A stretch of DNA of 64,000 nt from Paludibacteraceae bacterium (GCA_018056165.1 JAGPGD010000002.1:7686-71685), one strand, 5' to 3'. Positions 34,277 to 59,849 are shown, counted from the first letter of the stretch. A program made the numbers and translations. The notes: generated from the letters alone by a model not told the origin.

Positions 34277-35149
34277 TTAATTTCTTTTATCCATACCCCA
34301 CATTAATTTATTTTTTAAAGTATTAAAATAGGTATGATGAATTTGTTTAATAACTTTTATGGTAAAAGGAGCTTTTGAAATAATGAGTTTGGTGGTTTGA
34401 TTCAACACTTTCGATCGGCCATCCAATGATGCCAGAAAACTCTGGGTACGGCTATGAACCTCTAATTCTATAATCCAGCTATCAGGAATAATGATAGGGC
34501 GTACATTTAAACTGTGGGAAGCAACTGGTGATAAAATAAAATCTTGTGCCTGTGGTACGACAATTGGTCCCCCTACACTCATTGAATAAGCAGTGGAACC
34601 TGTTGGAGTGGCAACGATTAAGCCATCTGCTTGATAAGTGTTGATAAATTCGCCATTTACCGTAGCATTGATACTAATCATTGAAGATGAATCTTGTTTT
34701 GACACCGAAACTTCATTCAAGGCATAAGGGTATTCAAATGTTGTTTCATCGGAAGTTTTTACTAAAAGAGTAGTCCGATTTTCAATGCGATATTGTGAAT
34801 TTAAAATTGCTTCAAAAGCAGGAATAATTTCTTCACTTGAAATGTCGGCCAAAAAGCCCAATCTGCCTGTGTTGATACCTAATATTGGAATTCCTTTATT
34901 TCCAATCCGTGCAGCAGTATTTAAAAAAGTTCCATCCCCTCCAATACTCACCGCTAAATCTGCTTCAAAAAAATCAGTATCAATCACCTCAACTCCTTGT
35001 AGGTCAAATTCTTTTGTCTCTTCTATAAATTTATAGAGTTGACTTTCATACATCATGGTAATTTTTTGCTGAGTAAAATAATCAAATAAAACTTTAACAC
35101 AGGATAAAACCATAGGTCGATAAATATTCCCAAAAATGGCTATTTTCAT
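34277..35149 (-). CDS. nadK: NAD kinase
   Basis: GGDGTFL motif, NTGRLGFL, and ADGLIVATPTGSTAYSMSVGGPIV. 290 aa. Confidence 0.9.
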   Translation of the reverse strand: MKIAIFGNIYRPMVLSCVKVLFDYFTQQKITMMYESQLYKFIEETKEFDLQGVEVIDTDFFEADLAVSIGGDGTFLNTAARIGNKGIPILGINTGRLGFLADISSEEIIPAFEAILNSQYRIENRTTLLVKTSDETTFEYPYALNEVSVSKQDSSSMISINATVNGEFINTYQADGLIVATPTGSTAYSMSVGGPIVVPQAQDFILSPVASHSLNVRPIIIPDSWIIELEVHSRTQSFLASLDGRSKVLNQTTKLIISKAPFTIKVIKQIHHTYFNTLKNKLMWGMDKRN

Positions 35150-35376
35150 AAATTGTTGTTTATGATTGATTTAGTTGTATAATCGAAAAACAAAATACAC
35201 ACAAATTTAAAACAAATTGGACAATAATAAAGAAATATAGAAACGTTTTTGCATTTGAGGGATTAAAATTTGTTGTCAGATTGCATTTAAATATCATTAA
35301 GTTATATGAATAAATATCCTCTAAAATATAACCTGTTATAACTGCGCCATCACCATTTCTTATTTAATTCTGTGTC

Positions 35377-35405
35377 GTTTCAATTTCTTCTGGTGCGATT
35401 AAAAG
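35377..35405 (-). repeat. Solo CRISPR repeat (28/29 match to the array consensus), 9.2 kb from the array
   Basis: GTTTCAATTtCTTCTGGTGCGATTAAAAG, in the same orientation as the array repeats. It forms the 3' end of the truncated ORF 35380-35706 (tail ..FNRTRRN). Confidence 0.85.
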
Positions 35406-35706
35406 AATAATGAAAAAGAATAATGAAAAACAATGCGGCCAAAATAGCCATCTTGTATTTAGCGGCAATTGGTATCAATCGTTCGGTGCTCTCTCCCTCA
35501 GGAACAAATTCAGCCAGATACACCAATTGCAGTTTTGAAAGCTGTCGGGCAAAAGTATAACCCGTGATACAACACTCGTGAAATGCAATTACTTTAGAGT
35601 TGTCTTCTGCTGCTTTTCGAGTAAGGTTTTCAATTACCGATAAATTATAATTTTTATCTCCGCTATGGTTTTCAAATTGTGCGGTCGAAATTTTTAGTTT
35701 ATCCAT
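35380..35706 (-). pseudogene. Truncated carbon-nitrogen hydrolase (nitrilase superfamily) gene; only ~90 N-terminal residues remain
   Basis: MDKLKISTAQFENHSGDKNYNL..VIAFHECCITGY.. is a nitrilase-superfamily N-terminus with the catalytic Glu. Homology stops near 35440 and the frame runs through a 13-nt duplication into the solo CRISPR repeat. Confidence 0.7.
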
Positions 35707-35927
35707 AGATTTTAATTTAACTTATTCAGAAAGTTTTGGCAATTTTTCTCGTTTTTGTTTTTTTGTAACAGCAACAAATATCCATGATAAATAAATATGC
35801 ACGATAATTTTATGCGTGTCAATCTTAAGTCAACTTATGCGGTTCCACCGAACAAGCTATCGAATAGAAAATAAGCAAATTATTTTTAAAAAACTAAAAA
35901 GGCAAGGTTTTTACAGAAAAAAATATG

Positions 35928-35935
35928 TATTTTTG
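35928..35935 (+). promoter_or_regulatory. -7 promoter box TATTTTTG
   Basis: TAnnTTTG match 148 nt upstream of the ATG at 36083. Confidence 0.25.
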
Positions 35936-36082
35936 ACATATATAACCACTTTACTCATGCTCCCTAATTTGTTATAGTTGATTTTTTCCGCAGTCGTTAC
36001 ACTTTTATTTCCCGTTTACTGCTTTACTACAATGTGTAAACCAAATTATTAATGGCTGTTGAGTCAGTAAAACTCAAGATAT

Positions 36083-37237
36083 ATGAAAATTCCGAAATCT
36101 TTTAAACTTATTATTCTTTTTGTAGTATTAATATTAATGAGCAGAACAGCAAATGCAGATTCAATTTGTTCTCACAACAATTTTAGGTTTTTTGAAATTA
36201 TCGGGCAGGCAGGCGGGCATATTTACTCGGCCGATGCACTAAAGGAAGCATCACTAAATAAGTATAAGGAGTATAGGACATTGCAATTGAGGTATGGATG
36301 GAACAGTAGCGACCCTAACGGTTGGCAAAGCATGTATCTTTATCCCCAATACGGTATTGGGTGGTATAGTGGGTCTATTGGCGATCCAGAGATAGTAGGA
36401 AGGCCAAGTGCAGTATATGGATTTATTTCTTTTCCTCTTTCTTATGATCCGAAACATTACCCTTTCATTGAGGCGTCAATGGGTATTGGCTACAATTTTA
36501 AACCGTATCACAAAGAGCATAACTATCAAAATGATGCTATCGGTTCAAAGATCACCGGTTATCTTAATTTAAAATTAGCTGCAAATTACAGATTAAACCG
36601 CGAGTTGGACTTAATCTATGGGTTTGATATCATTCATTTCAGCAATGGCAGAATCTATAAGCCCAATGCCGGATTAAATATGCTCGGCATAAATTTAGGT
36701 TTAAGATACAATTTTAATACGATGCAAAAAGAGGTTGACAACTCATATCACCCCAAGGTGGTTCTCGATGCAAGGCCCCAGCATAATATATTCAGACCAA
36801 AAGAATCGATCAAACGCAGCGAATTTCTTCTATACAGTGCTTTTGGTTTAGTTCAAAACCATATGGACAACAGCAAACATTACGGCACATTCTCAACTTG
36901 CATTGAATACAGATACCTTATCAATACCTGTAGTGGCGTAACTGCCGGTTTCGATTTCTTTTATGACTCGAGCCTGAAACCTTTCTATCCGGACGAAAGT
37001 TACGACTTTTACGGTGTACATATTGGCTACGATTTTTTATTTTGGAAATTTGGTGCAAGGCTGCAAGGAGGGACTTATTTGACTCAAAAAGGACGTAATT
37101 TCAAAGGGCATTTTTTCTTTCGACCTGCCCTGCAGTACAACATTGGGAGTAAGTTTTATGCTCAAATTGGTCTGAAAACTCACAAGTTTAAAGCCGATTG
37201 GGTTGAGTGGGGGATTGGAGTAAAATTCCCGTGCTGA
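36083..37237 (+). CDS. Outer-membrane acyloxyacyl hydrolase / PagL-like lipid A deacylase family protein
   Basis: Signal peptide, beta-barrel pattern and a ..DIIHFSNGRIYKPNAGLNMLGINLGLRYNF motif (HxSN as in PagL-like proteins). 384 aa. Confidence 0.5.
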   Translation: MKIPKSFKLIILFVVLILMSRTANADSICSHNNFRFFEIIGQAGGHIYSADALKEASLNKYKEYRTLQLRYGWNSSDPNGWQSMYLYPQYGIGWYSGSIGDPEIVGRPSAVYGFISFPLSYDPKHYPFIEASMGIGYNFKPYHKEHNYQNDAIGSKITGYLNLKLAANYRLNRELDLIYGFDIIHFSNGRIYKPNAGLNMLGINLGLRYNFNTMQKEVDNSYHPKVVLDARPQHNIFRPKESIKRSEFLLYSAFGLVQNHMDNSKHYGTFSTCIEYRYLINTCSGVTAGFDFFYDSSLKPFYPDESYDFYGVHIGYDFLFWKFGARLQGGTYLTQKGRNFKGHFFFRPALQYNIGSKFYAQIGLKTHKFKADWVEWGIGVKFPC

Positions 37238-37373
37238 CAAAAGATTATCACCATCGCCGTTTTTTTATCGGGATCCAGATTTTGGGTTATTTTCGACGGA
37301 AAAGTGTTTCGCCAACCAGGGATTGTTATCATACTTTCTCCAGCATATTAATGAAAACCCGAATTTCCAGTAA

Positions 37374-37402
37374 CTTTCAATTCTTTATGGTGCGATGAAA
37401 AG
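37374..37402 (-). repeat. Degenerate solo CRISPR repeat (25/29 match) just downstream of the type III operon
   Basis: cTTTCAATTCtTTaTGGTGCGATgAAAAG, in the same orientation as the array. On the minus strand it ends in ATTGAAAG. Confidence 0.7.
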
Positions 37403-37423
37403 CGTTGAAAACGGTGGAAAATA

Positions 37424-37440
37424 AGGCTGAAAATCAGCCT
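37424..37440 (-). terminator. Hairpin downstream of the type III operon
   Basis: Perfect 7-bp stem AGGCTGA/TCAGCCT with a 3-nt loop, 27 nt after the cmr3-like stop and followed on the minus strand by TATTTTCC. Confidence 0.4.
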
Positions 37441-37466
37441 GTAAACATAAGATAAACTTCATTGTT

Positions 37467-38396
37467 CTAAAAAAATGATAATATCCCATTCCATTCAAGA
37501 ATTACTTTTTTACCATTACTTTTAAGTAGTAATGATCCTGGGGAGAAATAATAATTGGCCGTAGAAATGACTACACCGGGATTTTTTTTATAGGAACAAT
37601 CCGTTGAAGCACTTTCTTTTTCAATATTAAAATAGCCTCTTCCTGTAACGAGCTCTATCTCGCCCTCAAAATGCATTTCCGGGTGATATGTAAGGTGAGA
37701 AAGAATCGGTTTATCGTTCTCTAAGGGTATTACAATCTTTTCATTTTCCGGTTGATCGTTTATTGGCATTTTTTTCTTAGTGATGTATTCCAACTTCACT
37801 GAACCAAAACCATAAATCAACTCACCACCAAGAGTAAGTTCATCAATAAGGTTAAATTCTTTTACAAAAATTCCATTTTCATTCACGTCAATTTTGTTCC
37901 CCTGCAATTCAGCATCCTTTTTCACCCAGATACAACCAATGATTTGTGAGTATTTTATCTTTCCATCATCGCTTATATATTTATGCTTTATAAACTCAAT
38001 TTCGTGGAGAAATTGGTTTTTTGTTGTTTCCGAAGAAGGATCAACTGCTGTCAACACTCTGCTGCCTATAAATCTGTGCTCAAATTGGAATTTATCTAAC
38101 TTATCTCCAAAACTTAATCCTTTTTCTTGGTATTCAGGAATAAAAATAGTTTCCCCATCGTATAGGTAAAAATAGGAAAATCTGAAGTTTTCTTTGATCA
38201 GTTTACCAATTTTCTTATATTCTTTTGATGTTGGGTTATCCATTAAATGTTCGGTCGCTCTCTTTGTTACAGCACCCCAGAAGTTTTTTCCCGGAATGTA
38301 ATATCTTGTTGGGGATATTACCGAGCCCTTAAATGGCATATAGCCGATATGCAAAGGGCTTTCTAAGGTAAACACAATATCAAGCCTTGTCCACAT
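37467..38396 (-). CDS. cmr3: Type III RAMP, Cmr3/Cas5-like subunit (last gene of the operon)
   Basis: N-terminal RAMP beta-strand (LDIVFTLESPLHIG, YIPGKNFWGAVTKRA) and glycine-rich loop LTLGGELIYGFGSV. The position matches cmr3 in the III-C gene order. A Cas6-like alternative cannot be excluded by eye. Confidence 0.5.
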   Translation of the reverse strand: MWTRLDIVFTLESPLHIGYMPFKGSVISPTRYYIPGKNFWGAVTKRATEHLMDNPTSKEYKKIGKLIKENFRFSYFYLYDGETIFIPEYQEKGLSFGDKLDKFQFEHRFIGSRVLTAVDPSSETTKNQFLHEIEFIKHKYISDDGKIKYSQIIGCIWVKKDAELQGNKIDVNENGIFVKEFNLIDELTLGGELIYGFGSVKLEYITKKKMPINDQPENEKIVIPLENDKPILSHLTYHPEMHFEGEIELVTGRGYFNIEKESASTDCSYKKNPGVVISTANYYFSPGSLLLKSNGKKVILEWNGILSFF

Positions 38397-38763
38397 TTTT
38401 TTTCTCTTTTAGTTTTGAATGATATAAAGCAAAAGTTAGAGTGCGTTCCAGTATTTTTTTAAGAAAAAAAAGTTTATCAATATCTTTTGCAACTTCTTGT
38501 AGTTGCTTACAAAAAGCATTAAAATCCTCATAATTATTGTGAAAATCAACATTTAGATAACTTTTAATTTCATCATCCTTTAATAAATCAATTAAACTTT
38601 TTCTTATACTTTTATCCTCTTTTTCCAGCCAGAGAAACATGGCATAAACGCCATCTTCCTGTAAAATACCAAGAGCTTTTCTGAGAATATTCTCTTTTTT
38701 ATCTTCTGCATTTTCTCCTATGTCCTGACCTGTTTTTGCACATATATAATCAAGGTTTATCAT
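38380..38763 (-). CDS. cmr5: Type III small subunit (Cmr5/Cas11-like)
   Basis: 127-aa all-helical protein located between the cmr4-like and cmr3-like genes. Assigned by size, predicted helicity and position. Confidence 0.5.
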   Translation of the reverse strand: MINLDYICAKTGQDIGENAEDKKENILRKALGILQEDGVYAMFLWLEKEDKSIRKSLIDLLKDDEIKSYLNVDFHNNYEDFNAFCKQLQEVAKDIDKLFFLKKILERTLTFALYHSKLKEKKNVDKA

Positions 38764-38765
38764 GG

Positions 38766-39647
38766 TTATTGTCCTCCGTTTTGATTATTGTTTGTTTGAT
38801 TATTTTGTGTTTCAGCAGTGAAAAAATCCACTCTTCCAAATCCGCGAGTTCCCATACCACCCACTCCAAGAAGTTTTATATAGGGAAATGTAGCTTCTAT
38901 CAATGAGTATACATTACTGTTTTCATTGTCCTTACGTGAATCAACGATAGTTTCAAAAGCAATAACAGTGCCTCTGGGTATGGCTTCATAGGTAAATAAT
39001 GCAGTCTCAGCGGCAGTGCCTGTTTTTGGGTCTATCCTTACTGATGTTCTAACCTCAAGATTATCATTTACAAGATGCGAAAAGAGTTTATCAGATACTA
39101 CAACAATTCGTGTTAAAAAATTAATTAATTCTGCCGGCAAAACTACTGTTTTATCATTTTCAATATTTTGGACTTTTACCAGTAACCATCCAAGATTGAT
39201 GGAATTGCATGAAATTCCCTTTATTGCATAAGCTTCATCTTTAATTTCCGGAGGAATTTTTATTGCTTCTCCATTTGTATCTTTTATTTCACTTAGCCAA
39301 TATTCAAGTAATTCTTTTGTGGTTATCCACACAGTTCCTTCACTTGATGAAACAGGAAAAAAGACTATTTGGCCATCGTAAACTCTTACCATTCCCTGTT
39401 TGTTTTCGCTGCCAAAGGTTTCTTCAATTTTAATTTTATTAAATTTCTTTTCGTTTTTATCATCTTCAGCTTTTACAATCTCTGCATAAGCTCTTATAAC
39501 TCCTGCAAGAGAGGTACCAGGTATTTTTGGCACATCTGTAGCAGGTTCTCTGACTATGGTATTATCTACTCTACCAAGCCTATATCCTCCAGCTCCGATA
39601 TGCACCGGATCTAGGGTTTTCCCTAAATATTTTTCTGGGCTATTCAT
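38766..39647 (-). CDS. cmr4: Type III backbone RAMP Cmr4 (Cas7 family)
   Basis: DPVHIGAGGYRLGRVDNTIVREPATDVPKIPGTSLAGVIR (contains the catalytic-type Asp in GRVDN), then FGSENKQG, and a C-terminal G-rich loop LGVGGMGTRGFGRV. Confidence 0.8.
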   Translation of the reverse strand: MNSPEKYLGKTLDPVHIGAGGYRLGRVDNTIVREPATDVPKIPGTSLAGVIRAYAEIVKAEDDKNEKKFNKIKIEETFGSENKQGMVRVYDGQIVFFPVSSSEGTVWITTKELLEYWLSEIKDTNGEAIKIPPEIKDEAYAIKGISCNSINLGWLLVKVQNIENDKTVVLPAELINFLTRIVVVSDKLFSHLVNDNLEVRTSVRIDPKTGTAAETALFTYEAIPRGTVIAFETIVDSRKDNENSNVYSLIEATFPYIKLLGVGGMGTRGFGRVDFFTAETQNNQTNNNQNGGQ

Positions 39648-39666
39648 TTTTTAACCTCCTTTTATT

Positions 39667-42501
39667 TTAAATTGTATGTTTGAATAAAAATATAGTATCT
39701 AGTAAAAGTCCGTTATAGGCAGAATTTAATATAAAATCCTGTGTTTCTGTTCGTAGTTGATCCCATTTACTACTGAAAGCATCTTTAATTGTTGCCTCTG
39801 TGAACTTTTTGAATGTATCATCTTTTTTAGCGTCATTTACATTATACCATTCACGTAATTTATTTGTGAGCATTTCTTCAATGAAATTAATTTGAGAACT
39901 TGAAATATTATTATTCAAGATTTCCCATAAATCGACCATTTCTGAATATTGATACAAATAATATGGCCTTTGAGAATAAAGTTTATAATCATTACCAGCT
40001 CTTTTTTTATTGTTGTAAATAATATTAAATCTGTCGTTAGTTCCAAGAAGCAAATCGAAATCGAAGTATCCTGGATATAATGCAAAACTTTTTCCTTTAG
40101 ATAAGGTGGAAAGATCGTCAAGATTGTAAGAATCTTTTTTAATTAAAGGATAATAATTGTAATAATTATCGGTTCTAAGTCCATTTATATCCCACCAAGC
40201 ATCCATCAATTCCGGGTCTTTGAATTCCTTATTTCGCAGCATTCTTCCTCCAGCTTCAAGAAGGACATAAAGGGGAAATTTTCTGTTTGCAACAAGTAAA
40301 CTCATATTGAGAGGCAATTTTCCCAAAACCTTTTCAAATCTATCATTGCAAAGCTTTATTACTGAATTCATTATTTTTGCTGAATCTGCTGCAGGCACAA
40401 TAAGTCTGAGCGAGAGAGGTGATTTTGTAAGTTCAATAAAGGGATAATACTCTTCTAAAGCTGGATTATTAATTTTTAAATTTTGATTATTCTCGATTAA
40501 ATTATCTTCAGAATTATCTTCCTCTGAAATAAATTCTATTTCTTTATTTAAAGCCTCTTTAGCTGCTTCCACACCTGATTTATTTTGAAATTTATATTTT
40601 TCAAGTGATTCAATGGTATAAAATTCTCCATTTGAAGTATGCATGGCTAAAATACTTTCAGGATTTAATCCTTCTATTTTTATTATTAAAGGAGCATATT
40701 CTAAATTCTTTAAATCTATCTTATCTTTTGAAGCATTATCTATAAAGAAATGTAGCCTTTTCCATTTGTTTGAATAGATATTGTTTTTTTTTATCGCATT
40801 AATAAACAACTCAAAAAATTCTTTTGTTTCTGTCCATATTCGGTATAGCCGAGCAGGTGAAGGATTCTGAGTGAAGAGATAGGTAGCAAGATTTTCTTTA
40901 TTTAATTGATTTGTTTCTATTTTCTCTTTTATGTTTGAAAGATAATGGGAAAGGTTAGAATTATTTATCTTTACATCTTCAAAAAAAGTATTTAATAACT
41001 TTGCTGCTTTATCTTTATCTTTATCTTTATCGGAATCTTTGATACTTAATATCTTTTCTAAAACTTTATAAACACAATCTTTATTTGCTTGAACCAGATT
41101 ATTTTGTATAGCTTGCCATTTTTTACTATTTTTCCAGTCCTCGAAAGTTTGGGAAAAAAGAGTTTTAACCATTGTGCCATCAAGCCATCTGTCAAGATCG
41201 AAGCTAAAAGTTAGCAAAGCAATTCTATTGTTAGTGTCGGCAACCTCATCGAGCCAGATGGTATTTTCTCTATTGTCGAACCATTTACTCAATCTGTTCC
41301 TTTTTCTGCCTTCACACACCTGACATCTTTCGTCATCTTCAGGTTTGGACCTTAATCGGCATACCGGGCAAATATCCTCTCCATTTTTTGATTCTGGCAT
41401 TTCGGGATTATCAAAAAATATTTGTTTTTGCTCTTCTATAAATAGAGCAGGTGTCATCTTTGGTATATTTCTTTTTTCATCAGCAAATTGTAGTTCTTTT
41501 GAGAGAATAGTAAGAGTTCTTGAGGCTTTACTCAATGTGAAAAACGGCCATAGTTCGTCATTACTTGTATCTCTTATAATTTTTAGTCCGATTTCAATGC
41601 ATTCTTTTGCAAGTTTTTTTGAGTCATTACTTAATGCAGGAAAAGTAAAATAAATCCCATTGATGTCTTCGTAGATTACATTGCCAATGGGAATCTCATT
41701 TTCAAACTCATTTTGCAATTTGTTTTTAATTTCTTCAATAATTCTACTTCTACTGATAATGTCAGCAATTTTATTACCTTTATTTATAAACCCAATGCCA
41801 TCCCAGCAAAATCCAAAGATTCTCCACTGTAATTTATCAGGATTTAAAGTTTCATCTAAAGCCATTGAACACAATACGGATTTAAAAAGTGATGCAGTAG
41901 AATGAGAATGATCCCAGAGAGTAACATCATTTGCTGGAATTCTTGTTTCACCCAGAGCGTGAGAGAAAGTTGTTTTTACATTAGTTACTATAGAACTCCG
42001 AAAGCAGGTTATATCCGTACTTCTGGTAGTATAATTCTGAAACAAGACTTTTAAATTGTTTTGCAAATCGTCAAGTCTCTTTTTTAAACATTGCAGGTCA
42101 ATTTTTTCTTTAGGAAAACCAAATGGTGAAGTTATAATAGTACTATCTTTTGGCTGTTTTCTTCTCACAACTCCTTTATCATCAGCTGAATCTAATCGGT
42201 CACATTTTTCTAAATATGTTAAAAGGGTTCCCGCAACATCATGGTGATAACGAATAAGATCATAAACTGATTTTTCTTCATTATTGAATTTTATTTTTAC
42301 TTTTTTAAAGACATTAATAAGTTCGGGATTTAAAAGTTTATCAATTTCTCTTGCATGATGTGGCAATCCTTTTATTCTTTCTGCAGACTGTTTTTCGACA
42401 AAATTCGGATCGCATTTCCCGATATCATGAAGCAGAGCTCCAATTTCGCCAAGGAGAATATTATCTCTTTTATTCTTTATATTTTCTATTAAATTGTTCA
42501 T
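39667..42501 (-). CDS. cas10: Cas10 (Cmr2-like large subunit) with N-terminal HD domain and no recognisable GGDD cyclase motif
   Basis: HD motifs (GALLHDIGK, RYHHDVAG, LDSADD). Palm-1-like FGFCWDGIGFINKGNKIADIISRSR. Zn ribbon CPVCRLR..CQVCEGR. Palm-2-like RIALLTFSFDLDRWLDG and SPARLYRIW. Post-GGDD-type block LPLNMSLLVANRKFPLYVLLEAGGRML. No GGDD or GGDE string occurs anywhere in the 944 aa. Confidence 0.8.
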   Translation of the reverse strand: MNNLIENIKNKRDNILLGEIGALLHDIGKCDPNFVEKQSAERIKGLPHHAREIDKLLNPELINVFKKVKIKFNNEEKSVYDLIRYHHDVAGTLLTYLEKCDRLDSADDKGVVRRKQPKDSTIITSPFGFPKEKIDLQCLKKRLDDLQNNLKVLFQNYTTRSTDITCFRSSIVTNVKTTFSHALGETRIPANDVTLWDHSHSTASLFKSVLCSMALDETLNPDKLQWRIFGFCWDGIGFINKGNKIADIISRSRIIEEIKNKLQNEFENEIPIGNVIYEDINGIYFTFPALSNDSKKLAKECIEIGLKIIRDTSNDELWPFFTLSKASRTLTILSKELQFADEKRNIPKMTPALFIEEQKQIFFDNPEMPESKNGEDICPVCRLRSKPEDDERCQVCEGRKRNRLSKWFDNRENTIWLDEVADTNNRIALLTFSFDLDRWLDGTMVKTLFSQTFEDWKNSKKWQAIQNNLVQANKDCVYKVLEKILSIKDSDKDKDKDKAAKLLNTFFEDVKINNSNLSHYLSNIKEKIETNQLNKENLATYLFTQNPSPARLYRIWTETKEFFELFINAIKKNNIYSNKWKRLHFFIDNASKDKIDLKNLEYAPLIIKIEGLNPESILAMHTSNGEFYTIESLEKYKFQNKSGVEAAKEALNKEIEFISEEDNSEDNLIENNQNLKINNPALEEYYPFIELTKSPLSLRLIVPAADSAKIMNSVIKLCNDRFEKVLGKLPLNMSLLVANRKFPLYVLLEAGGRMLRNKEFKDPELMDAWWDINGLRTDNYYNYYPLIKKDSYNLDDLSTLSKGKSFALYPGYFDFDLLLGTNDRFNIIYNNKKRAGNDYKLYSQRPYYLYQYSEMVDLWEILNNNISSSQINFIEEMLTNKLREWYNVNDAKKDDTFKKFTEATIKDAFSSKWDQLRTETQDFILNSAYNGLLLDTIFLFKHTI

Positions 42502-43427
42502 GGTTTCAATTTCAATTCTTCTATTTTTTTGTTCAGATCTTCTAGGTTAGAAAAATCAGTTACTTCTATATCTCTGTCTTTCTTTATCCATAATTTTCCT
42601 TCCTCTAATTTTTCTTCAATTACACCAAACCCACTTGTTTTTTTTGCAGAAAAGCCATAGGTATAGAACATCAACCGTAATGCATCCGCTAAAAAATTCA
42701 AATCCTCTGCCGCCTCATCTTCTTTAAAATTGTCCCCTTTTGGATAAGGGAAATACAATAGGTAAAAATCGGCACTTTTTCCCGGTTTCATCACCTCAAG
42801 ATTTATAGGTGCTTTACCTTTAGGAGGAGTCCTAGTATCTCGTTTCAATGGAGTGATCACATCTCTTTCGGCGTTATCCTTAAAAAAGGTAGGAAAGAAA
42901 TAGAGTCTTCCTTTTAATTGATTCTCTTTTTCTTCCGATTCCGAGCCAAAGATCCTTTTAATAATTCTCTTCTTTTTTTCATTTTCCCCCTTTACTTTAC
43001 CTGCGGCAAAACGCAAATGTCCTTTCCATGTTGAAGGCTTTACCATGGGAAGCCCTGTGAATTTATCTCTGGCGATGGGATTTTCTGTAATTTTACCATT
43101 AAGAATACGAAACTCTTCCTCGTCTTTACTTGTATAGGGCTTTTTGAGAGTAAAAGAAATTTTTAAAAGAGTGGTATTTTGAGGAAGATTTTGAATATCA
43201 TTTTCTGAAGGATAAAAACAATTTATATTTTTATTTTCTGCTAATTTTTCCTTATCATTTTTCTTTTGTTTAGCTAAAGGAAGCATAAATATTTCTTCCA
43301 ACCAGAGATTACATTTTTCTTGTTCATTTTTACGTTCTATTTTATTTTGATTTTCTTTTTTCCAATCTTCAAAATTTTTTATATCGGTGACGATAAGCCT
43401 TGAAAGATAATAATCATGTATAATCAT
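42498..43427 (-). CDS. cmr6: Type III RAMP, Cmr6-like (Cas7 family)
   Basis: FTGLPMVKPSTWKGHLRFA, IFGSESE..KGRLYFFPTFF, and C-terminal G-rich YGFSAKKTSGFGVI. 4-nt overlaps with both neighbouring genes. Confidence 0.6.
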   Translation of the reverse strand: MIIHDYYLSRLIVTDIKNFEDWKKENQNKIERKNEQEKCNLWLEEIFMLPLAKQKKNDKEKLAENKNINCFYPSENDIQNLPQNTTLLKISFTLKKPYTSKDEEEFRILNGKITENPIARDKFTGLPMVKPSTWKGHLRFAAGKVKGENEKKKRIIKRIFGSESEEKENQLKGRLYFFPTFFKDNAERDVITPLKRDTRTPPKGKAPINLEVMKPGKSADFYLLYFPYPKGDNFKEDEAAEDLNFLADALRLMFYTYGFSAKKTSGFGVIEEKLEEGKLWIKKDRDIEVTDFSNLEDLNKKIEELKLKP

Positions 43428-44464
43428 AATAAGTCCTCCACTAATTTTTTACCGGATTTTTCCTCTTTCAGATCGCAAAATTCTAATTTATTTTCTTCTT
43501 TGGAAAATAACATCTGATTTATTCTTTCTTCCATATTGGTTTTGATGTTTTCTTTTAAATAATCATTAAGATCATGTCCCCAAATTCTAATTTCTACAGT
43601 TCTTTCATCAATTTTATAACCATGAGAAACAAAAATTTTAGAACCTTTACCCATTTCACCGAAAATTGTATGTCTTTTATTATAATTGCTTTCTAAAGAT
43701 CTTAACGCATCTCTAATATGAAACGCGATAGGTAGGAAATGATAGTCTTCCCATAAGGTTTCCCAGTGACCCCAATTATCTTTAAATTTTTTATGTTTGG
43801 GAGAATGGGTCCCAAAAACTTTATTTTCAATTAAGTTATTGATATCTTCTTTGAATTTAATATGAAACTTATAAAAGAAGAAATGTTCTAAGTTGGGTGA
43901 GTTAATGGTATGACTTATTATTTTTCTTAACCCGGATTTATCCACCTTTTCGTCATTATTCGCTAAACTATTCTTAACAATTTCTATTACTCCATTCCCT
44001 TGTGATATACGTGCTCCTATGGCACCATAGTTCGCTATTATTTTAAAGGTAGCATTCAACAATGTTAATTCATTAGAAGTAATTTTTCTTAATGGTATAA
44101 ATTTCAAAATTATTGGTTCATTAGACATAAAACCTGAAACACTTCTTTTTAAATATTTTTTTTTATGACTCATTCTTGTCCCTATTTGTATTTCTGGGAT
44201 TTTATGGTTAAAGTTAACTTCCAGTCTGAACTTCCTTGCCCATCCTGTGCAGCCAAATAACTCACATGCATCACAATGTTCTTTTTCTTTACATTTTGTA
44301 TTTGTTGGGTCACAAGCATATCCTCCAAGCCCTCTGATCAGTGCTTCGTACCACCATCTCAGGCTCCCTATTATTCCCGTTTCTCTCAGTGTGGGGCTTT
44401 CCCTTTGAGCATTGCCTGTCCAGATTGGGGTTAATGATCTAATTTCAACTGCATATTCTTTCAT
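43424..44464 (-). CDS. cmr1: Type III RAMP Cmr1-like (Cas7 family), first gene of the operon
   Basis: SLTPIWTGNAQRESPTLRETGIIGSLRWWYEALIRG and CDACELFGCTGW are Cmr1-type motifs. 346 aa. Confidence 0.7.
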   Translation of the reverse strand: MKEYAVEIRSLTPIWTGNAQRESPTLRETGIIGSLRWWYEALIRGLGGYACDPTNTKCKEKEHCDACELFGCTGWARKFRLEVNFNHKIPEIQIGTRMSHKKKYLKRSVSGFMSNEPIILKFIPLRKITSNELTLLNATFKIIANYGAIGARISQGNGVIEIVKNSLANNDEKVDKSGLRKIISHTINSPNLEHFFFYKFHIKFKEDINNLIENKVFGTHSPKHKKFKDNWGHWETLWEDYHFLPIAFHIRDALRSLESNYNKRHTIFGEMGKGSKIFVSHGYKIDERTVEIRIWGHDLNDYLKENIKTNMEERINQMLFSKEENKLEFCDLKEEKSGKKLVEDLL

Positions 44465-44560
44465 TTTGCTGTTTCATAAAATGTTAAATGACAGGTATAA
44501 TACCTACATTGGGTTAAATTTCACAAGTTTTTTATTGTAACCACGATTTTTATTCGACTT

Positions 44561-44568
44561 CAAATGTA
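44561..44568 (-). promoter_or_regulatory. -7 promoter box (TACATTTG on the minus strand) between the array end and cmr1
   Basis: CAAATGTA on the plus strand, ~97 nt upstream of the cmr1 ATG at 44464. Confidence 0.35.
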
Positions 44569-44625
44569 TAATTTTATTTTTAAACTTAAAAAGAATGATT
44601 CATTTTTATGCATGCATTTGCTTAT

Positions 44626-47600
44626 ATTTCAATTCCTTCTGGTGCGATTAAAAGATTTATTGCATTTATAACTCTCGTATCATAGGTGTGTTATTTCAAT
44701 TCCTTCTGGTGCGATTAAAAGTTTTAAGTCTTTTAACGCCGATTTAACAAAAATATAATTTCAATTCCTTCTGGTGCGATTAAAAGTGCCAATCTTGCAT
44801 CTGGTGAATATTCTGAATCTCCATTTCAATTCCTTCTGGTGCGATTAAAAGTATAATTCAATAGGAAATAATTTTAATTATAATTCAATATTTCAATTCC
44901 TTCTGGTGCGATTAAAAGTTTGATGTAAGAGCGAGTTCTAATACAACCTCTACTTATTTCAATTCCTTCTGGTGCGATTAAAAGAAAACTGCACTAAATA
45001 AGGTTCACTTGCTGTACTGCATTTCAATTCCTTCTGGTGCGATTAAAAGTGTAATCTTGTAAAACTATACTTAATTCATCGATACATTTCAATTCCTTCT
45101 GGTGCGATTAAAAGAAAACTGCACTAAATAAGGTTCACTTGCTGTACTGCATTTCAATTCCTTCTGGTGCGATTAAAAGTGTTCATAATATCCATAATAA
45201 TCCGATTTTAATCGCATTTCAATTCCTTCTGGTGCGATTAAAAGTATGGAGAAGAAAATGCAAAATTGGTAGAAAAACAATTTCAATTCCTTCTGGTGCG
45301 ATTAAAAGCGTGCATCGCTGCGTGAAATAAAAGGTATTTTCACGCATTTCAATTCCTTCTGGTGCGATTAAAAGTGCTAAAAACGTATATGGAAGTATAA
45401 ATAGGCTGCTATTTCAATTCCTTCTGGTGCGATTAAAAGAATGCGTCGAAAATTGCACTTTTAATAAAAAAAATCATTTCAATTCCTTCTGGTGCGATTA
45501 AAAGCCGTATTACAGGAAGTTATTCAGCAAATTAAGCAGAATTTCAATTCCTTCTGGTGCGATTAAAAGTATCAATTCTTTTACGTCTATCCAAAAATAA
45601 TCTGTATTTCAATTCCTTCTGGTGCGATTAAAAGATTTAATTGAAGACAAGGCGGTTCAAATATACATTAATTTCAATTCCTTCTGGTGCGATTAAAAGT
45701 TGACCGAAAAATCATAGTTGGCTTTGCCGAAAATATATTTCAATTCCTTCTGGTGCGATTAAAAGAAACAAGAACAAAAAGCTTTAATGGATTTCGACAT
45801 AAATTTCAATTCCTTCTGGTGCGATTAAAAGTTTCTGCAATTCAGGAACAACAAGCTGCTTCAAAATTTCAATTCCTTCTGGTGCGATTAAAAGTTGCGA
45901 ACAGGGCAAACCGGCGTTCCAACTAAATGAGAATTTCAATTCCTTCTGGTGCGATTAAAAGGCTGACTGCGATTACATAGCAATTGAAAATCCGGTATTT
46001 CAATTCCTTCTGGTGCGATTAAAAGAATCCTTGTTGTATTATGCCAATTCGCTTTCGGCATTTCAATTCCTTCTGGTGCGATTAAAAGAACTATATTTAC
46101 AGGCGAATGCAAGATTGCATCGGCATTTCAATTCCTTCTGGTGCGATTAAAAGTTAATAAATATTTTCTTGGAATAACTTCCGTTATTGCATTTCAATTC
46201 CTTCTGGTGCGATTAAAAGCGTTGCTTTGCAATGCCTAAAACAAGTGAAAGTCGTCCGTTATTGCATTTCAATTCCTTCTGGTGCGATTAAAAGATGGTG
46301 GAAGAACCAGAAACCTGCAAAAACATGATAATTTCAATTCCTTCTGGTGCGATTAAAAGCTTTTCAATAGTCTCATAAAATTCATCTAATTCTTTTATTT
46401 CAATTCCTTCTGGTGCGATTAAAAGACTATTGAGAAAAAAAGAATTTTTACCCCATTTATATTTCAATTCCTTCTGGTGCGATTAAAAGTTTGAATATAA
46501 ACCAGACGGAAGCACCGGTGCAAAATTTCAATTCCTTCTGGTGCGATTAAAAGCTGGATTAGATATTATAAAATCATTACAGAGATTTTAATTTCAATTC
46601 CTTTTGGTGCGATTAAAAGTCGTTTTTTCATTCATTTTATCCATAAAAGGAATAACGCATTTCAATTCCTTTTGGTGCGATTAAAAGTTTTGGTTAAGTC
46701 TTGCAAGTTCGCTTTCTGATAGATTTCAATTCCTTTTGGTGCGATTAAAAGCAATAATAGCTGCAATAGCTGCTGCTATTATGCTCAATTTCAATTCCTT
46801 TTGGTGCGATTAAAAGCGAGAAAAGCAAATTTATGATTTGATTCAAATGTAATTTCAATTCCTTTTGGTGCGATTAAAAGATTTAAAACTGCCACCAACA
46901 GATAATAATTGTAAGATATTATTTCAATTCCTTTTGGTGCGATTAAAAGCGCCTGAACGATCTTTTGATGCTTCTAAATTGTTTCAATTTCAATTCCTTT
47001 TGGTGCGATTAAAAGTAGATATTGCTGATAAAAGCTGTTGCACGAAAATCTCATTTCAATTCCTTTTGGTGCGATTAAAAGATAAGAACATATAAATAAA
47101 TTCTATTGCTTTGCTATCATTTCAATTCCTTTTGGTGCGATTAAAAGACACGCAATTCAGACAGAATTCAAAAGAAATGGGAAATTTCAATTCCTTCTGG
47201 TGCGATTAAAAGTTCAACTCCTGATTACATTGACAAGTCAATTGTTGGTTTCAATTCCTTCTGGTGCGATTAAAAGAAATTCACCCCACCCAAAAGCCCG
47301 TCCAGCTTTACGAAGTTTCAATTCCTTCTGGTGCGATTAAAAGTTATTAAATTCTTTTACATATTTGTCTGAATTACAAGTTTCAATTCCTTCTGGTGCG
47401 ATTAAAAGTAAAAAAATTATTCGTATAGCTTGCGAGGAGTTGTTGTTTCAATTCCTTCTGGTGCGATTAAAAGCATAATCGATAAAATAACTTTATACAA
47501 CGCTGATTGTAGTTTCAATTCCTTCTGGTGCGATTAAAAGTTATAAAATGAATTAATTGTTAACTTTTCTTCATCGTTTCAATTCCTTCTGGTGCGATTA

Positions 47601-50600
47601 AAAGTTTTAAACTTCAAGAAAAATATAATATAGGTACTGCGAAGTTTCAATTCCTTCTGGTGCGATTAAAAGTATCGTATTTTTCAAGAACGAAATCACG
47701 AATTTTATGTTTCAATTCCTTCTGGTGCGATTAAAAGAACAGCTTTAACAAGTTGTTGAAATTCTGATGTGTCGTTTCAATTCCTTCTGGTGCGATTAAA
47801 AGAGGAGCTGTTTGGTGATTATTTCTCACCAAGCTGCGTTTCAATTCCTTCTGGTGCGATTAAAAGTCAGGAATTGAGAAATGAAATAAAAAGGCTCAAT
47901 AGTTTCAATTCCTTCTGGTGCGATTAAAAGAAGAAGTTAAACAAATTAATTATCCTCAACTTCAAGTTTCAATTCCTTCTGGTGCGATTAAAAGTATTAT
48001 ATAAGCTCTCATAATGTTAAATTTTTAAGTTTCAATTCCTTCTGGTGCGATTAAAAGTTGGTGGTCTTCTGGTTTTTTTCTTTTTTCCGCAGTTTCAATT
48101 CCTTCTGGTGCGATTAAAAGCATGATCTCACCAGCAGGCGTGCTTCGTGAAATTCTGACGTTTCAATTCCTTCTGGTGCGATTAAAAGATTTTTGACAAT
48201 TTCTAATTTAATACTCTTGTCAATGTTTCAATTCCTTCTGGTGCGATTAAAAGAGAAGTTAAACAAATTAATTATCCTCAACTTCAAGTTTCAATTCCTT
48301 CTGGTGCGATTAAAAGATATCAGAGAAAATTTGCAATGTATGCTAGACGTGGCATGTTTCAATTCCTTCTGGTGCGATTAAAAGCCAATGCCGTTAAATT
48401 TTCTTTAACTTTTTCGCTGTTTCAATTCCTTCTGGTGCGATTAAAAGTAAAAGGCTTTGGATTTTGACGGGGGTTATAAATGTTTCAATTCCTTCTGGTG
48501 CGATTAAAAGATTCGCAACTTTTTTAAGTTTGTTAATAATAGGTAGTTTCAATTCCTTCTGGTGCGATTAAAAGATTCGCAACTTTTTTAAGTTTGTTAA
48601 TAATAGGTAGTTTCAATTCCTTCTGGTGCGATTAAAAGCTGAAATTCTTGAACAGTCCCGACACTCCGATGCTGTGTTTCAATTCCTTCTGGTGCGATTA
48701 AAAGTTTTTGCTGTGTTAAAACTTTTAACAATACCATGATTGTTTCAATTCCTTCTGGTGCGATTAAAAGTTTAATTGTTGCTCCGAAGCGTGTTGCCGA
48801 GCATGTGGTTTCAATTCCTTCTGGTGCGATTAAAAGAGTTATGAAACAATTTAAGGATAAGGAATTTGATCGTTTCAATTCCTTCTGGTGCGATTAAAAG
48901 TGACAATATTTGAAAAATTATGTTACATCGCAGATGTTTCAATTCCTTCTGGTGCGATTAAAAGAAAACGTGCTTTCTACAATGCTTTTATCGATATAGT
49001 CGTTTCAATTCCTTCTGGTGCGATTAAAAGATGGTGGTTCGTTTTCTTCTTCCTCAAACTCGAAGTTTCAATTCCTTCTGGTGCGATTAAAAGCAAAATT
49101 GTATATTCTTTAAAATCAGATAGATACATGTTTCAATTCCTTCTGGTGCGATTAAAAGGATTATAAGTTTGATGATAAATCAAAGCACGAAAAAGTTTCA
49201 ATTCCTTCTGGTGCGATTAAAAGTTTGTTCACCAAACGATAAAAATTTTCTTTCAAAAGTTTCAATTCCTTCTGGTGCGATTAAAAGATTTTCCTGAATG
49301 GTATTCTGAATTTGATTTTATCGAGTTTCAATTCCTTCTGGTGCGATTAAAAGCTCAAAAAGCACGAGGCGTGAAATGTAAGGATTTGGTTTCAATTCCT
49401 TCTGGTGCGATTAAAAGGATTATAAGTTTGATGATAAATCAAAGCACGAAAAAGTTTCAATTCCTTCTGGTGCGATTAAAAGCTGGTGTTACATCAAACT
49501 TTTTCTCAAAATGATAGTTTCAATTCCTTCTGGTGCGATTAAAAGAGTGTTAAACGGAGCGACAACAGTAATAAAAAGGCTGTTTCAATTCCTTCTGGTG
49601 CGATTAAAAGGGACTTCGGAGACACACGAGACCCGAATTGTTTAGTGTTTCAATTCCTTCTGGTGCGATTAAAAGTGTCTTTTCTTTCCATTTGTCGAAT
49701 TGTCCGTTGTCGTTTCAATTCCTTCTGGTGCGATTAAAAGTTTTGCAGAATGTTAACAATTCTTGTATTCCCTCCTGGTTTCAATTCCTTCTGGTGCGAT
49801 TAAAAGCATAATGAGGGGCATTAATATAAATTTTTGCGTTGTTTCAATTCCTTCTGGTGCGATTAAAAGCACCTGAACCAACTGCCCCAGCCAGTAGCAC
49901 GCCGTTTCAATTCCTTCTGGTGCGATTAAAAGTTCATTGCGCGGTTATTTGTTGTACTTCTTTTGCTGTGTTTCAATTCCTTCTGGTGCGATTAAAAGGC
50001 CTTCTACATACCCGTTAACTCCCTCGTCGTCTATGTTTCAATTCCTTCTGGTGCGATTAAAAGCGCCAGTTTCGGCGTGGATAGTTCGGATTTGATATGC
50101 GTTTCAATTCCTTCTGGTGCGATTAAAAGTTCTTTTATACATTCAAACAAATAACAAGCTATCTCGTTTCAATTCCTTCTGGTGCGATTAAAAGATTCCT
50201 TTGAAGTCTTCAAAATTTGAAATAACAAAATGTATGTTTCAATTCCTTCTGGTGCGATTAAAAGTCGTGGAATGTTAAAAGAAAAAAAGATATGGGTTTA
50301 GTTTCAATTCCTTCTGGTGCGATTAAAAGAAAACGTGCTTTCGACAATGCTTTTATCGATATAGTCGTTTCAATTCCTTCTGGTGCGATTAAAAGTAAGC
50401 AGCATTGGACTGTTTTCAATGATGACATATTTGTTTCAATTCCTTCTGGTGCGATTAAAAGCCTCTTGCAACCACACATGCTCGGCAACACGCTTGTTTC
50501 AATTCCTTCTGGTGCGATTAAAAGAAATTTTAAAAAGTTCAAATTCATACCTTGTTACAATGTTTCAATTCCTTCTGGTGCGATTAAAAGCAACAATTGC

Positions 50601-53600
50601 TGATAAAATAATCGTAATAATCGCAACGTTTCAATTCCTTCTGGTGCGATTAAAAGACACCTGACAACGATAATCAGGAAACAATTATAAGTTTCAATTC
50701 CTTCTGGTGCGATTAAAAGTGAATATAAAACTCTTTTGCTTTACAAAATTTGGTTAAGTTTCAATTCCTTCTGGTGCGATTAAAAGTTGAAACAGAAGAC
50801 GTAAATTCATTAATCGACAGGTGTTTCAATTCCTTCTGGTGCGATTAAAAGTTACCTTGTAAATCAAGTTGATATACTTTCTTTGGTGTTTCAATTCCTT
50901 CTGGTGCGATTAAAAGATCTGTGCCTGCAATCCAAGCCCGTAAATCTTCCAAGTTTCAATTCCTTCTGGTGCGATTAAAAGCTTACAAACAGCACACCGA
51001 AAAGATTTATCGCTTTGTATCGTTTCAATTCCTTCTGGTGCGATTAAAAGTAATTTCTTTGCCGCCGTCATGCGGACTTGTTTTGTTTCAATTCCTTCTG
51101 GTGCGATTAAAAGAGGACGAATTGACCGAATACGACATCATGGTAGCAAGTTTCAATTCCTTCTGGTGCGATTAAAAGACACAAAAACGAAAGCCTTTGG
51201 AAGATTTACGGGCTGTTTCAATTCCTTCTGGTGCGATTAAAAGTCACTGTCAGTTGAGAAGAATTCAACCCACGATCCATTGTTTCAATTCCTTCTGGTG
51301 CGATTAAAAGCAATTATCAATAAATCTTCATATGATTTCGATATTGTTTCAATTCCTTCTGGTGCGATTAAAAGCTGCACAACGTAAACGACAGAATTTT
51401 GCGTCCCGATAAAGTTTCAATTCCTTCTGGTGCGATTAAAAGTGAATAGCTTCATGATTGAGTGTTATATCGTCAATCTGTTTCAATTCCTTCTGGTGCG
51501 ATTAAAAGCTGTCAGTTGAGAAGAATTCAACCCACGATCCATTGTTTCAATTCCTTCTGGTGCGATTAAAAGCGTTACTCGATTATAATCCTTCGTTTTC
51601 AGACGATCATGTTTCAATTCCTTCTGGTGCGATTAAAAGTGACAATATTTGAAAAATTATGTTACATCGCAGATGTTTCAATTCCTTCTGGTGCGATTAA
51701 AAGGACAATATTTGAAAAATTATGTTATATCGCAGATGTTTCAATTCCTTCTGGTGCGATTAAAAGCTGTTGACAAGTCTATCAAATTAGAAATTGTCAA
51801 AAATCTGTTTCAATTCCTTCTGGTGCGATTAAAAGCCCAAATTTTTAACAATCTGAAATGTGATTGTTAAGTTTCAATTCCTTCTGGTGCGATTAAAAGC
51901 TTATAAATGCAGAAAAATGCGAAGATTAAAAAAACGTTTCAATTCCTTCTGGTGCGATTAAAAGGTTTTTTCCTTCCATTTATCAAATTGTCCGTTGTCG
52001 TTTCAATTCCTTCTGGTGCGATTAAAAGCACAATTGAATTTATTGATAGGGATACTAAAGAATGTTTCAATTCCTTCTGGTGCGATTAAAAGGAACTTGA
52101 AAAAAAATGCTGTAATTATGCTCGCAAACGTTTCAATTCCTTCTGGTGCGATTAAAAGGATTTTACAAATGAAAAAGTTTTTACAAAGATTAGACTAGTT
52201 TCAATTCCTTCTGGTGCGATTAAAAGATTTTTCTTAAAATATCTGAACGTTTCCAGCAGCTGTTTCAATTCCTTCTGGTGCGATTAAAAGTCATTTTCAT
52301 CCCATTTTTTTAAGAAATTTTTATCATTGTTTCAATTCCTTCTGGTGCGATTAAAAGTTTTTTATAATTTTTTTTTATAAAATTATCTTTTTGGGTTTCA
52401 ATTCCTTCTGGTGCGATTAAAAGTTCGACTTCAATTTCAGCCTTCCGAAATGCTTCTGCGTTTCAATTCCTTCTGGTGCGATTAAAAGTAAAATTTGTTT
52501 ATCAAACGCAAAAGGTTTGGCGTCGTTTCAATTCCTTCTGGTGCGATTAAAAGTTCGACTTCAATTTCAGCCTTCCGAAATGCTTCTGCGTTTCAATTCC
52601 TTCTGGTGCGATTAAAAGGGTTGGGCTGCTGTCAAATTAGAAAAAAATCATAATAAGTTTCAATTCCTTCTGGTGCGATTAAAAGTTAGATACCCTAAAC
52701 AATTCATGCCAATATTCTTTGTTTCAATTCCTTCTGGTGCGATTAAAAGTTGAAAAAAACGATGTAGTGCTTAAAATTTTATGGAAGTTTCAATTCCTTC
52801 TGGTGCGATTAAAAGGGATAATCATCAGGAGCATAGACAATGCTCCCTTCGTTTCAATTCCTTCTGGTGCGATTAAAAGATTAAAATGTATCATACTTCT
52901 TATAATTAACTTCAAAGTTTCAATTCCTTCTGGTGCGATTAAAAGTTTATTGATAGTGATATTTTTAGTTATACCATCGCAGTTTCAATTCCTTCTGGTG
53001 CGATTAAAAGAATATCAAACCTATTGATTCGTAACCTCTTATGCGGTTTCAATTCCTTCTGGTGCGATTAAAAGGTTGAAAAGGTTAAATTTATTGATAA
53101 AGTAAAATAGTTTCAATTCCTTCTGGTGCGATTAAAAGCTGAATTTCATAATTTCCCGCTTCACCGTGTTGCGGTGTTTCAATTCCTTCTGGTGCGATTA
53201 AAAGTTCTTCGTTACTACGCCGCCAAGCTGCCTTAGATCCGTTTCAATTCCTTCTGGTGCGATTAAAAGCGGATACGCCAAAATTTTCTGAATTACTGAT
53301 TAAATGTTTCAATTCCTTCTGGTGCGATTAAAAGACTATTTTCTGGCAACAGGACATAAATAGTAATTTCGTTTCAATTCCTTCTGGTGCGATTAAAAGG
53401 AAAATTATGTTAGAAATTTCAAAGATAAATTAAAAGCTGTTTCAATTCCTTCTGGTGCGATTAAAAGAACCAATACTTATTTGATAAGAAGTTGAATCTT
53501 CGGTTTCAATTCCTTCTGGTGCGATTAAAAGGGATTGCCCAGACTGGATTGGAAACAGGAGTGCCTGGTTTCAATTCCTTCTGGTGCGATTAAAAGTGTG

Positions 53601-58348: not shown

Positions 58349-58559
58349 CCGTGCTCTGTATCAAAAATTTTATCTAAAAATCAAATTGTTAGCAAAACAA
58401 TGAGCATCCTTTATGGAATGTAAAAATTGTCGATAGGCAAAAATATAAAAATCCTTGATTTTCGACAACTTGTTTTTATCTTGATTTTCAATAGATCAAA
58501 AAAAAATCATATTCGAATTCAACAACATAAAAAGAAAAAACTCATCTTTCGACAATTGA
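58349..58559 (-). other. Putative CRISPR leader (A/T-rich, ORF-free) between cas2 and the first repeat, with a -7 box at 58438-58445
   Basis: 211-bp A/T-rich spacer. CAAAAATA (TATTTTTG on the minus strand) lies ~90 nt upstream of the repeat at 58348. There are three TCGACAA motifs (58427-58433 inverted, 58462-58468, 58549-58555) and a duplicated CTTGATTTTC. Confidence 0.55.
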
Positions 58560-58823
58560 TTACAAAAAAATATCAGTGCTACTTCTTTCTTTTCCAATGA
58601 TTTGTTTGTCAAGAAATTTTTCTGTCCTGCTGGAAAAAATAATCAATGAATCTTCTTCCAATTTCATGATTCTTTCTGCAAATATAATTAATTCTTTCAA
58701 TTTGACTTCTGAAATTTCTCCTTCAAAAACCGAATTTTGTATCCAGTTCAAATATCTCCGACAAAGTTTGAGCATTTTTGCTACTCGTTTTTCATTGACG
58801 TCATATACCAAAATTACGTACAT
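58560..58823 (-). CDS. cas2: CRISPR-associated endoribonuclease Cas2
   Basis: MYVILVYDVNEKRVAKMLKLCRRYLNWIQNSVFEGE.. is a canonical Cas2 N-terminus. 87 aa, abutting the cas1 stop. Confidence 0.95.
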   Translation of the reverse strand: MYVILVYDVNEKRVAKMLKLCRRYLNWIQNSVFEGEISEVKLKELIIFAERIMKLEEDSLIIFSSRTEKFLDKQIIGKERSSTDIFL

Positions 58824-59840: not shown

Positions 59841-59849
59841 AAAATATAA

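Follow-up and report, generated by a model that had tools for sequence, protein, structure and literature searches.

Several ways in which CRISPR loci are rearranged at their repeats are already known, among them repeat-mediated deletion, mutation of terminal repeats, recombination between arrays, kilobase inserts and exchange of modules (PMC11472070, PMC4390879, PMC3973734). The leaderless locus F of Sulfolobus solfataricus, for example, carries an 899-bp pNOB8-like fragment between two repeats (PMC4390879). Natural terminal repeats of Cas12a systems often carry mutations that prevent the production of extraneous crRNA (PMC6610086), and repeats flanking type III loci have been judged mostly degraded and non-functional (Shmakov et al., 10.1101/2023.03.03.530964). 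Single near-consensus repeats that flank cas operons have been described as standalone repeats, mini-arrays and SRUs (10.1101/2023.03.03.530964) and as Racrs (PMC10651486).

The window analysed here, a 64,000-nucleotide stretch of a Paludibacteraceae genome (GCA_018056165.1 JAGPGD010000002.1:7686-71685), likewise contains two solo repeats near a type III-C operon. As in the arrays studied with SpacerPlacer (PMC11472070) and those reviewed for the Sulfolobales (PMC4390879), breakpoints fall at repeats, spacers are lost in blocks, the last repeat is mutated and loci recombine with one another, but here the block is 7.2 kb long and consists of an effector operon and a leader stub, and zero spacers are left in one of the arrays. 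Foreign, kilobase-scale non-spacer DNA is bracketed by array repeats as in locus F; that insert lies inside an intact array, whereas the brackets found here differ in origin, as one of them came in together with the insert, and the insert can be assigned to a source locus. As in the modular exchange described by Vestergaard et al. 2014 (PMC3973734), a stand-alone type III interference module is involved and type I-B modules are swapped behind a shared leader and cas2; in this case the exchange is between strains approximately 1.5% apart and has one junction at a repeat edge. In contrast to standalone repeats, mini-arrays, SRUs and Racrs, the locus has no distal repeat and no PAM-flanked promoter target, it does not lie on a virus, and for the right copy the origin as a relic can be seen directly.

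The locus is a known kind of event, unusually well documented: the right copy is a stranded trailer repeat and the left copy probably is one. Both are likely to be non-functional ends of arrays, left behind as a single CRISPR locus was rearranged step by step and foreign DNA, comprising an outer-membrane gene acquired across families and the III-C operon, entered or left it. What they mark are recombination scars of an ordinary kind, and they do not resemble a new RNA-guided system.

Two solo repeats outside the main array

The features of the locus are listed in Table 1. Three leader-side spacers that match contig C42 have a CCW 5′ motif on the minus strand, from which transcription of the main array runs leftward, and both solo copies therefore lie beyond its trailer end. 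These recently acquired spacers, at positions 57574, 57702 and 57768, match C42 (L092) of the same assembly (G000) with 0–2 mismatches and a CCW PAM; C42 is 5.7 kb long, its genes match unnamed PHROG phage families, and it is probably a co-occurring phage binned with the host.

Table 1 Features of the locus, in window coordinates
Feature	Position	Strand	Remarks
nadK	34277–35149	minus	Native chromosomal gene left of the locus; Pfam NAD_kinase
AT-rich flank of left repeat	35206–35376		In strains of this species only, 98.7–100% identity
Left stranded CRISPR repeat (probable)	35377–35405	minus	1 mismatch in the window; identical to the consensus in most other strains
Junction stub	35406–35428		10 nt plus 13-bp tandem duplication; duplication missing in allele L050
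Nitrilase-family pseudogene, 5′ 93 codons	35429–35706	minus	Acquired horizontally; 92% amino acid identity to 313-residue donor proteins
PagL-like outer-membrane β-barrel gene	36083–37237	plus	Intact; Pfam PagL; NCBI label ‘acyloxyacyl hydrolase’; acquired cargo
Trailer flank of the donor’s pagL-linked array	37238–37373		Aligns through the terminal repeat to L027, L029, L030, L032, L034
Right stranded repeat, degenerate trailer-end repeat	37374–37402	minus	Followed by at least 20 spacers in L048, L049, L057–L066
CRISPR leader fragment, repeat-proximal 64 nt	37403–37466	minus	Register kept with the repeat; truncated at the cmr3 stop codon
Type III-C effector operon, cmr1-cmr6-cas10c(csx11)-cmr4-cmr5-cmr3	37467–44464	minus	Absent at the locus in L049, L057–L066
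Decayed rve/DDE insertion sequence end	44513–44594		73–80% identity to a multicopy sequence ending an rve transposase ORF on C74
Main CRISPR array, 211 repeats	44626–58348	minus	40 A-start repeats at the trailer end, then 171 G-start
Leader	58349–58559		Followed by type I-B cas2-cas1-cas4-cas3

An earlier note, made from the window alone, reported the two solo repeats in array orientation, and a re-scan of the genome bears this out: compared with the majority array repeat, the left copy is identical at 28/29 positions and the right copy at 25/29, with 1968 bp between them. The wider search that the note proposed, across the 2.02-Mb genome, returned no other copy outside the array with fewer than 7 mismatches, the next best having 7. 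Chance matches are expected genome-wide at 2.6e-9 for at most 1 mismatch and 6.6e-5 for at most 4, which rules out a chance origin. The copies differ from each other at 5 positions. Between strains, each shows a difference at 1 of its 29 positions, compared with 1.3–2.9% in the flanking genes, and one of these two differences, that in the right copy, lies inside the 8-nt handle.

The genome is in 103 contigs and repeats are assembly branch points, so that a chimeric metagenome assembly joined at the repeats might be suspected; its probability is minute, however, given that both junctions, in both arrangements, are spanned by Logan contigs from several runs and by ENA, JGI and NCBI assemblies, and that the solo repeats contain private substitutions. 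Logan contig L047 is 100% identical to the window over 35294–37745, and L035, L045, L067 and L068 span the junctions; these contigs are derived from reads of other runs, one of which may be the source of the present assembly. An assembly artefact is rejected on these contigs, which reproduce both junctions.

The right repeat and its leader stub

In a sister strain with 98.2–98.6% nucleotide identity over 4–6 kb (98–99% as the overall range), the order of elements is nadK, left repeat, truncated nitrilase gene, pagL, right repeat, 20 spacers, leader, cas2 and cas1. Its leader is nearly identical to that of the window and the cmr genes are lacking, with the alignment to the window breaking at 37403, the edge of the repeat. 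The cmr-less loci (L048, L049 and L057–L066) carry the same spacers and were counted as one lineage. The suggestion that the array once extended as far as the right repeat is supported, as in the sister strain it still does. That the solo repeats mark recombination junctions, also proposed in the earlier note, is supported too.

The right repeat is placed and built as a terminal repeat, with spacers on its leader side, non-spacer trailer on the other side and a degenerate sequence that has 4–5 substitutions relative to the array consensus, including the terminal base. The last repeat of donor arrays begins with the same non-consensus C (L029, L030, L032, L034, L073, L075, L078 and L079). In L027 the corresponding position is also occupied by a lone repeat, after loss of cas1, cas2, leader and array, of which a 5′ remnant of cas1 is still visible. 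On this sequence evidence the right copy is explained as the trailer repeat of an array.

The leader stub that adjoins the repeat was overlooked in the initial reading. Over 43–49 nt it is 86–88% identical to the leaders in L019, L029, L030 and L034 (E values of 3e-12 to 5e-9); it aligns with the repeat-proximal part of leaders of donor arrays and of the genus relative G002, and its junction with the repeat is the same as in donor L074. The right repeat thus belongs here to a zero-spacer array composed of leader stub, one repeat and trailer. A lone repeat in another genus relative, G003 (L097, C11:31004), precedes sequence that is also found after the end repeat of an array piece on C41 of G003, and is possibly another relic made up of a repeat and a leader.

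Origin of the enclosed segment

Positions 35429–37402, with the right repeat included, are 95.3% identical at the nucleotide level to L027 and approximately 90–93% identical to other donor loci. Donor contigs contain an intact nitrilase gene divergent from pagL, followed by ribAB, lptF, nagB and mutS2, and are labelled Dysgonamonadaceae; proteins of the present species are labelled Paludibacteraceae. Recent horizontal transfer of the 1968-bp segment into the present species is indicated by this level of DNA identity set against only 43–72% amino acid identity between the donor-side neighbours (ribAB to mutS2) and their G000 orthologues, by the retention of a native nitrilase gene on C45, by PagL-like homologues that are only 26–30% identical in genus and family relatives, and by the arrangement around nadK. 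The earlier note had asked whether relatives carry an intact nitrilase gene beside nadK. None was seen: in G002–G004 the neighbour is pdxJ, in G001 it is an IS110 element, and the nitrilase gene appears never to have been a neighbour of nadK. No genome of the donor species was found among the GTDB genomes searched.

The nitrilase piece lies within an ORF of 108 residues on the minus strand (35380–35706) that matches Pfam CN_hydrolase and ends in ..FNRTRRN inside the left repeat, as the earlier note described. The fusion to the repeat can be described more closely: homology stops at 35429, 23 nt short of the repeat (10 nt in allele L050), and the frame merely reads through. Full-length homologues have 313 residues, the closest being 91–92% identical and labelled Dysgonamonadaceae. 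The native paralogue on C45 is intact, with 77% nucleotide identity to the piece and 82% amino acid identity to the donor protein, and it was the only match when the missing remainder was sought elsewhere in G000. Codon changes number 3 synonymous and 7 non-synonymous relative to the donor, compared with 12 and 3 between donors (Fisher p=0.034, small numbers); constraint on the piece appears from these counts to be relaxed.

The pagL-like gene is intact, as the note had stated: its 384-residue ORF matches PagL over residues 69–208, is 97% identical at the nucleotide level to that of L027 and is uninterrupted in both strain types. It differs by 2.9% between strains (window 36083–37237 versus L049:3004–4158), with 17 synonymous and 17 non-synonymous codons, which is approximately twice the rate of nadK and hisG in a gene that is still intact; relaxed or diversifying selection on this surface protein is possible.

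The donor site below pagL is a defence hotspot (L023, L027, L029–L034 and L073–L080). A full array and a type III-A system are found there in L029, L030, L034 and L074, a solo terminal repeat with the cas1 remnant and III-A in L027, and restriction–modification genes in L031 and L033; array scraps and arrays split by insertion sequences (IS) also occur. These variants imply that decay to a single repeat recurs at the site.

Foreign DNA flanked by direct repeats could also be a giant spacer, integrated by Cas1–Cas2 with duplication of the repeat, and the plasmid-like insert of Sulfolobus locus F (PMC4390879) is of a comparable kind. This reading is exceedingly improbable for the present segment, as the two repeats differ at the 5 positions noted above, the segment lies on the trailer side, and genuine spacers of this array measure 34–46 nt. 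The right repeat and trailer are moreover orthologous to the donor’s terminal repeat and its flank, so that duplication of the left copy does not account for the right one; with neither a duplicated single repeat nor addition at the leader end, and with donor homology continuing through the right repeat, the reading is refuted. For the same reason, capture of the segment between copies of one repeat, which the earlier note had raised as a possibility, finds no support, the right repeat and trailer having arrived with it. None of 687 spacers from the fetched loci matches the segment, and the flanks of the solo repeats are unmatched among the 210 spacers of the window.

The left repeat and its junction

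On the left, nadK is 95% identical at the nucleotide level to that of the sister species, and this homology stops at 35205. The following 171 nt, up to the left repeat, have no match in other fetched loci and no exact match in viral contigs; they are possibly the trailer of a former resident array. The left repeat is found in all strains seen, with the consensus 8-nt handle kept, and among the loci seen it is confined to one species, in a genus to which the repeat family is native. Its perfect consensus in most strains fits either recent origin or selection. It starts with G even where the array of the strain has only A-start repeats, which is what a variable terminal base would give. The junction stub begins none of the 687 spacers from fetched loci or of the window’s own spacers, and its first 10 nt are possibly a spacer remnant. 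The left copy probably once ended a resident array that has been overwritten, and 10 nt of a spacer would have been left where the DNA was joined illegitimately; this history is a matter of probability because none of the loci examined has an array attached to the left repeat and the 171-nt flank matches nothing outside the species.

A donor sub-lineage (L073–L080) has a 245-bp internal deletion in its nitrilase gene (nt 282–528) that starts 4 nt from the window breakpoint, with no repeat nearby. The proximity may be a coincidence or may reflect a fragile site. Because this deletion arose beside no repeat, the left repeat need not, from the sequences compared, have caused the nitrilase break.

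The left repeat might be separate from the transfer, a leftover of another event such as IS activity or deletion beside a fragile nitrilase site. The breakpoint is 10 nt off the repeat and not flush with it, the independent donor deletion begins close by, and the genome is IS-rich, with the ancestral nadK–pdxJ linkage broken and IS110 present at the same spot in a sister species. Such a separation is nevertheless unlikely: the 2 Mb contain just one other solo copy, the left copy is oriented like the array and no more than 23 nt away from the transfer breakpoint, and a search for an IS end at the junction itself found none.

The III-C cassette and the I-B module

The region 37403–44625 is a present/absent block of 7.2 kb that comprises the leader stub, the III-C operon and a flank with an IS end. 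The proposal that the III-C operon lies between repeats is supported in that it forms a cassette, present in the window strain and absent from the sister strain. Its assignment follows from a Cas10c/Csx11 with an HD domain and without GGDD, together with cmr1, 3, 4, 5 and 6. The effector, which has neither its own array nor its own Cas6, would use crRNA of the I-B array. In a cmr3 sequence of 99.9% identity from another sample (L045:285–1213), a one-base indel splits the gene into 246 and 69 residues. The decayed IS end fills most of the gap between cmr1 and the array, and it suggests that transposition helped to build the block.

Gain and loss of the cassette at the repeat edge are about equally probable. 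The stub speaks for loss in the sister strain, its leader type being that of the donor’s pagL-linked array and its junction being as in L074. Gain in the window strain is favoured by the distribution of the operon, which searches of 300 family and 400 order genomes did not recover and which has its closest genome match, at 52%, in an ANME-1 archaeon; one metagenome contig has a Cmr3 of 79% identity with an array approximately 250 bp downstream. No spacers are common to the window strain and any other array compared, and spacers therefore cannot polarize the event. Because both strains keep the substitutions of the degenerate right repeat, one of the cassette junctions has to be located within its last 5 nt; this is a short target for homologous recombination and a point against the overall reading of the locus.

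The I-B module also differs between strains. The two strains have almost the same leader, cas2 and cas1 3′ part but diverge beyond these, with a crossover inside cas1, and cas3-cas5-cas7 of the sister strain are 92% identical to those of G002. The window-strain set (58349–64000 and C22 to 78206, compared with L057 and L019) is distinguished by pRiA4, a Y1 transposase and two cas6 genes, the latter at C22:76554–78206. The repeat family is common to the genus and the donors. Elsewhere in the window, at 6527–7862, there are five to six copies of a palindromic REP-like unit of approximately 143 bp, with relatives on many contigs.

Solo repeats as possible sources of guide RNA

One or both solo repeats could have been co-opted as a crRNA-like regulator of the CreA/CreR type or as a decoy of the SRU/Racr type, with Cas6 cutting cmr read-through RNA or RNA from the nitrilase promoter and the product being loaded on Cascade or Cmr. 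Both repeats face the transcribed direction of the array and are downstream of minus-strand genes, and the left repeat keeps the consensus handle in every strain seen. Mini-arrays are enriched in composite loci, including an archaeal I-B plus III-C case with a predicted target upstream of cmr1 (10.1101/2023.03.03.530964), and functional extraneous crRNA from terminal repeats is known for Cas12a (PMC6610086).

Co-option is nonetheless improbable here. A second repeat at spacer distance was sought with up to 8 mismatches and none was found: apart from the 211 copies of the array and the 2 solo copies, the ungapped scan returned nothing, although a more decayed second repeat could escape it. PAM-adjacent seed runs are no better than those of shuffled sequences, with a best run of 2–3 nt in ten intergenic regions of the locus (CC-type PAM) and shuffle means of 3.1–3.7, and the guides that the solo repeats would give have no PAM-flanked seed of at least 13 nt genome-wide. 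The right handle is mutated in the sister strain, where the copy is a mere array end; a terminator-like hairpin (consensus match only) lies just upstream of the right repeat, inside the leader stub at 37424–37440; and an Rfam search gave no match. The solo copies resemble mini-arrays and crlRNA loci in being near-consensus repeats beside a cas locus, but they have no distal repeat 20–60 nt downstream, no seed of at least 10 nt at a promoter with a PAM and no conservation as a standalone unit in related loci. SRUs and Racrs belong to viruses or mobile elements, whereas these copies are chromosomal, between nadK and the host cas locus.

The functional guides envisaged by the earlier note thus found no support, there being no other target with PAM and seed and the 8-nt handle of the right copy being mutated in the sister strain. 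The complementarity to plus-strand RNA below pagL to which it pointed is trivially true of any minus-strand transcript and of every array trailer. If RNA is cut at the solo repeats, it would be a by-product of the trailer type and arise incidentally. The trailer of the main array (44589–44625) itself has an 11-nt exact seed match (14 with wobble positions) at C22:72422; the match is flanked by CCG, falls within the gene for the Y1 transposase in the I-B operon and is probably due to chance, with 4 hits of at least 13 nt occurring genome-wide.

Discussion

The stranding of array ends at this locus would have proceeded in two steps. In the first, Dysgonamonadaceae-labelled DNA consisting of the 5′ part of the nitrilase gene, pagL, trailer and terminal repeat, with an array behind it, would have entered beside nadK. 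The transfer itself is documented by the comparison of loci and its mechanism is proposed here. The right anchor is likely to have been an array or leader, because the repeat family is common to both lineages, while the left end would be an illegitimate join inside the nitrilase gene, 10 nt from the last repeat of the resident array, which was overwritten and left the left solo copy. The left join is non-homologous, and shared repeats and leaders exist; the right crossover has been overwritten by later events. In homology-facilitated illegitimate recombination, reportedly described by de Vries and Wackernagel, shared sequence on one side of the import is combined with a non-homologous join on the other. 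The present case may resemble it, with array and leader as the shared sequence, and would differ in that the anchor is made of CRISPR repeats and in that the crossover itself cannot be located.

In the second step, the 7.2-kb block would have come to lie between the imported terminal repeat and the remaining array. Its polymorphism among strains is observed directly. An ancestral locus may have had two arrays flanking the III-C operon, of which the left one shrank in the window strain to one repeat and a leader, while the sister strain deleted the operon by array-to-array recombination. Alternatively, the cassette may have been inserted at the array end.

More tentatively, the repeat and leader family shared by these Bacteroidales might act as a reusable landing pad, loosely comparable to an integron site, through which foreign blocks enter by array-anchored recombination, each stranding the previous terminal repeat; the ends at 35377, 37374 and 44626 would then record the order of capture. 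The blocks could, equally tentatively, be the pagL cargo from another family, the III-C effector with its archaeal closest genome match, and the alternative I-B modules. This reading fits the anatomy of the locus, and it rests on one locus.

Interference modules are well known to be exchanged, but the junctions of such exchanges have seldom been observed. At this locus the states before and after can be compared between close strains, one with and one without the entire III-C operon at a repeat edge, and an inter-family donor is identified for the neighbouring cargo. The locus also recommends caution in screens for regulatory crRNA-like RNAs, which pick up solo repeats next to type III operons: such a repeat may be nothing more than the end of an array. 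Were the landing-pad reading true across many genomes, CRISPR repeats would be a route of gene flow between families that share them.
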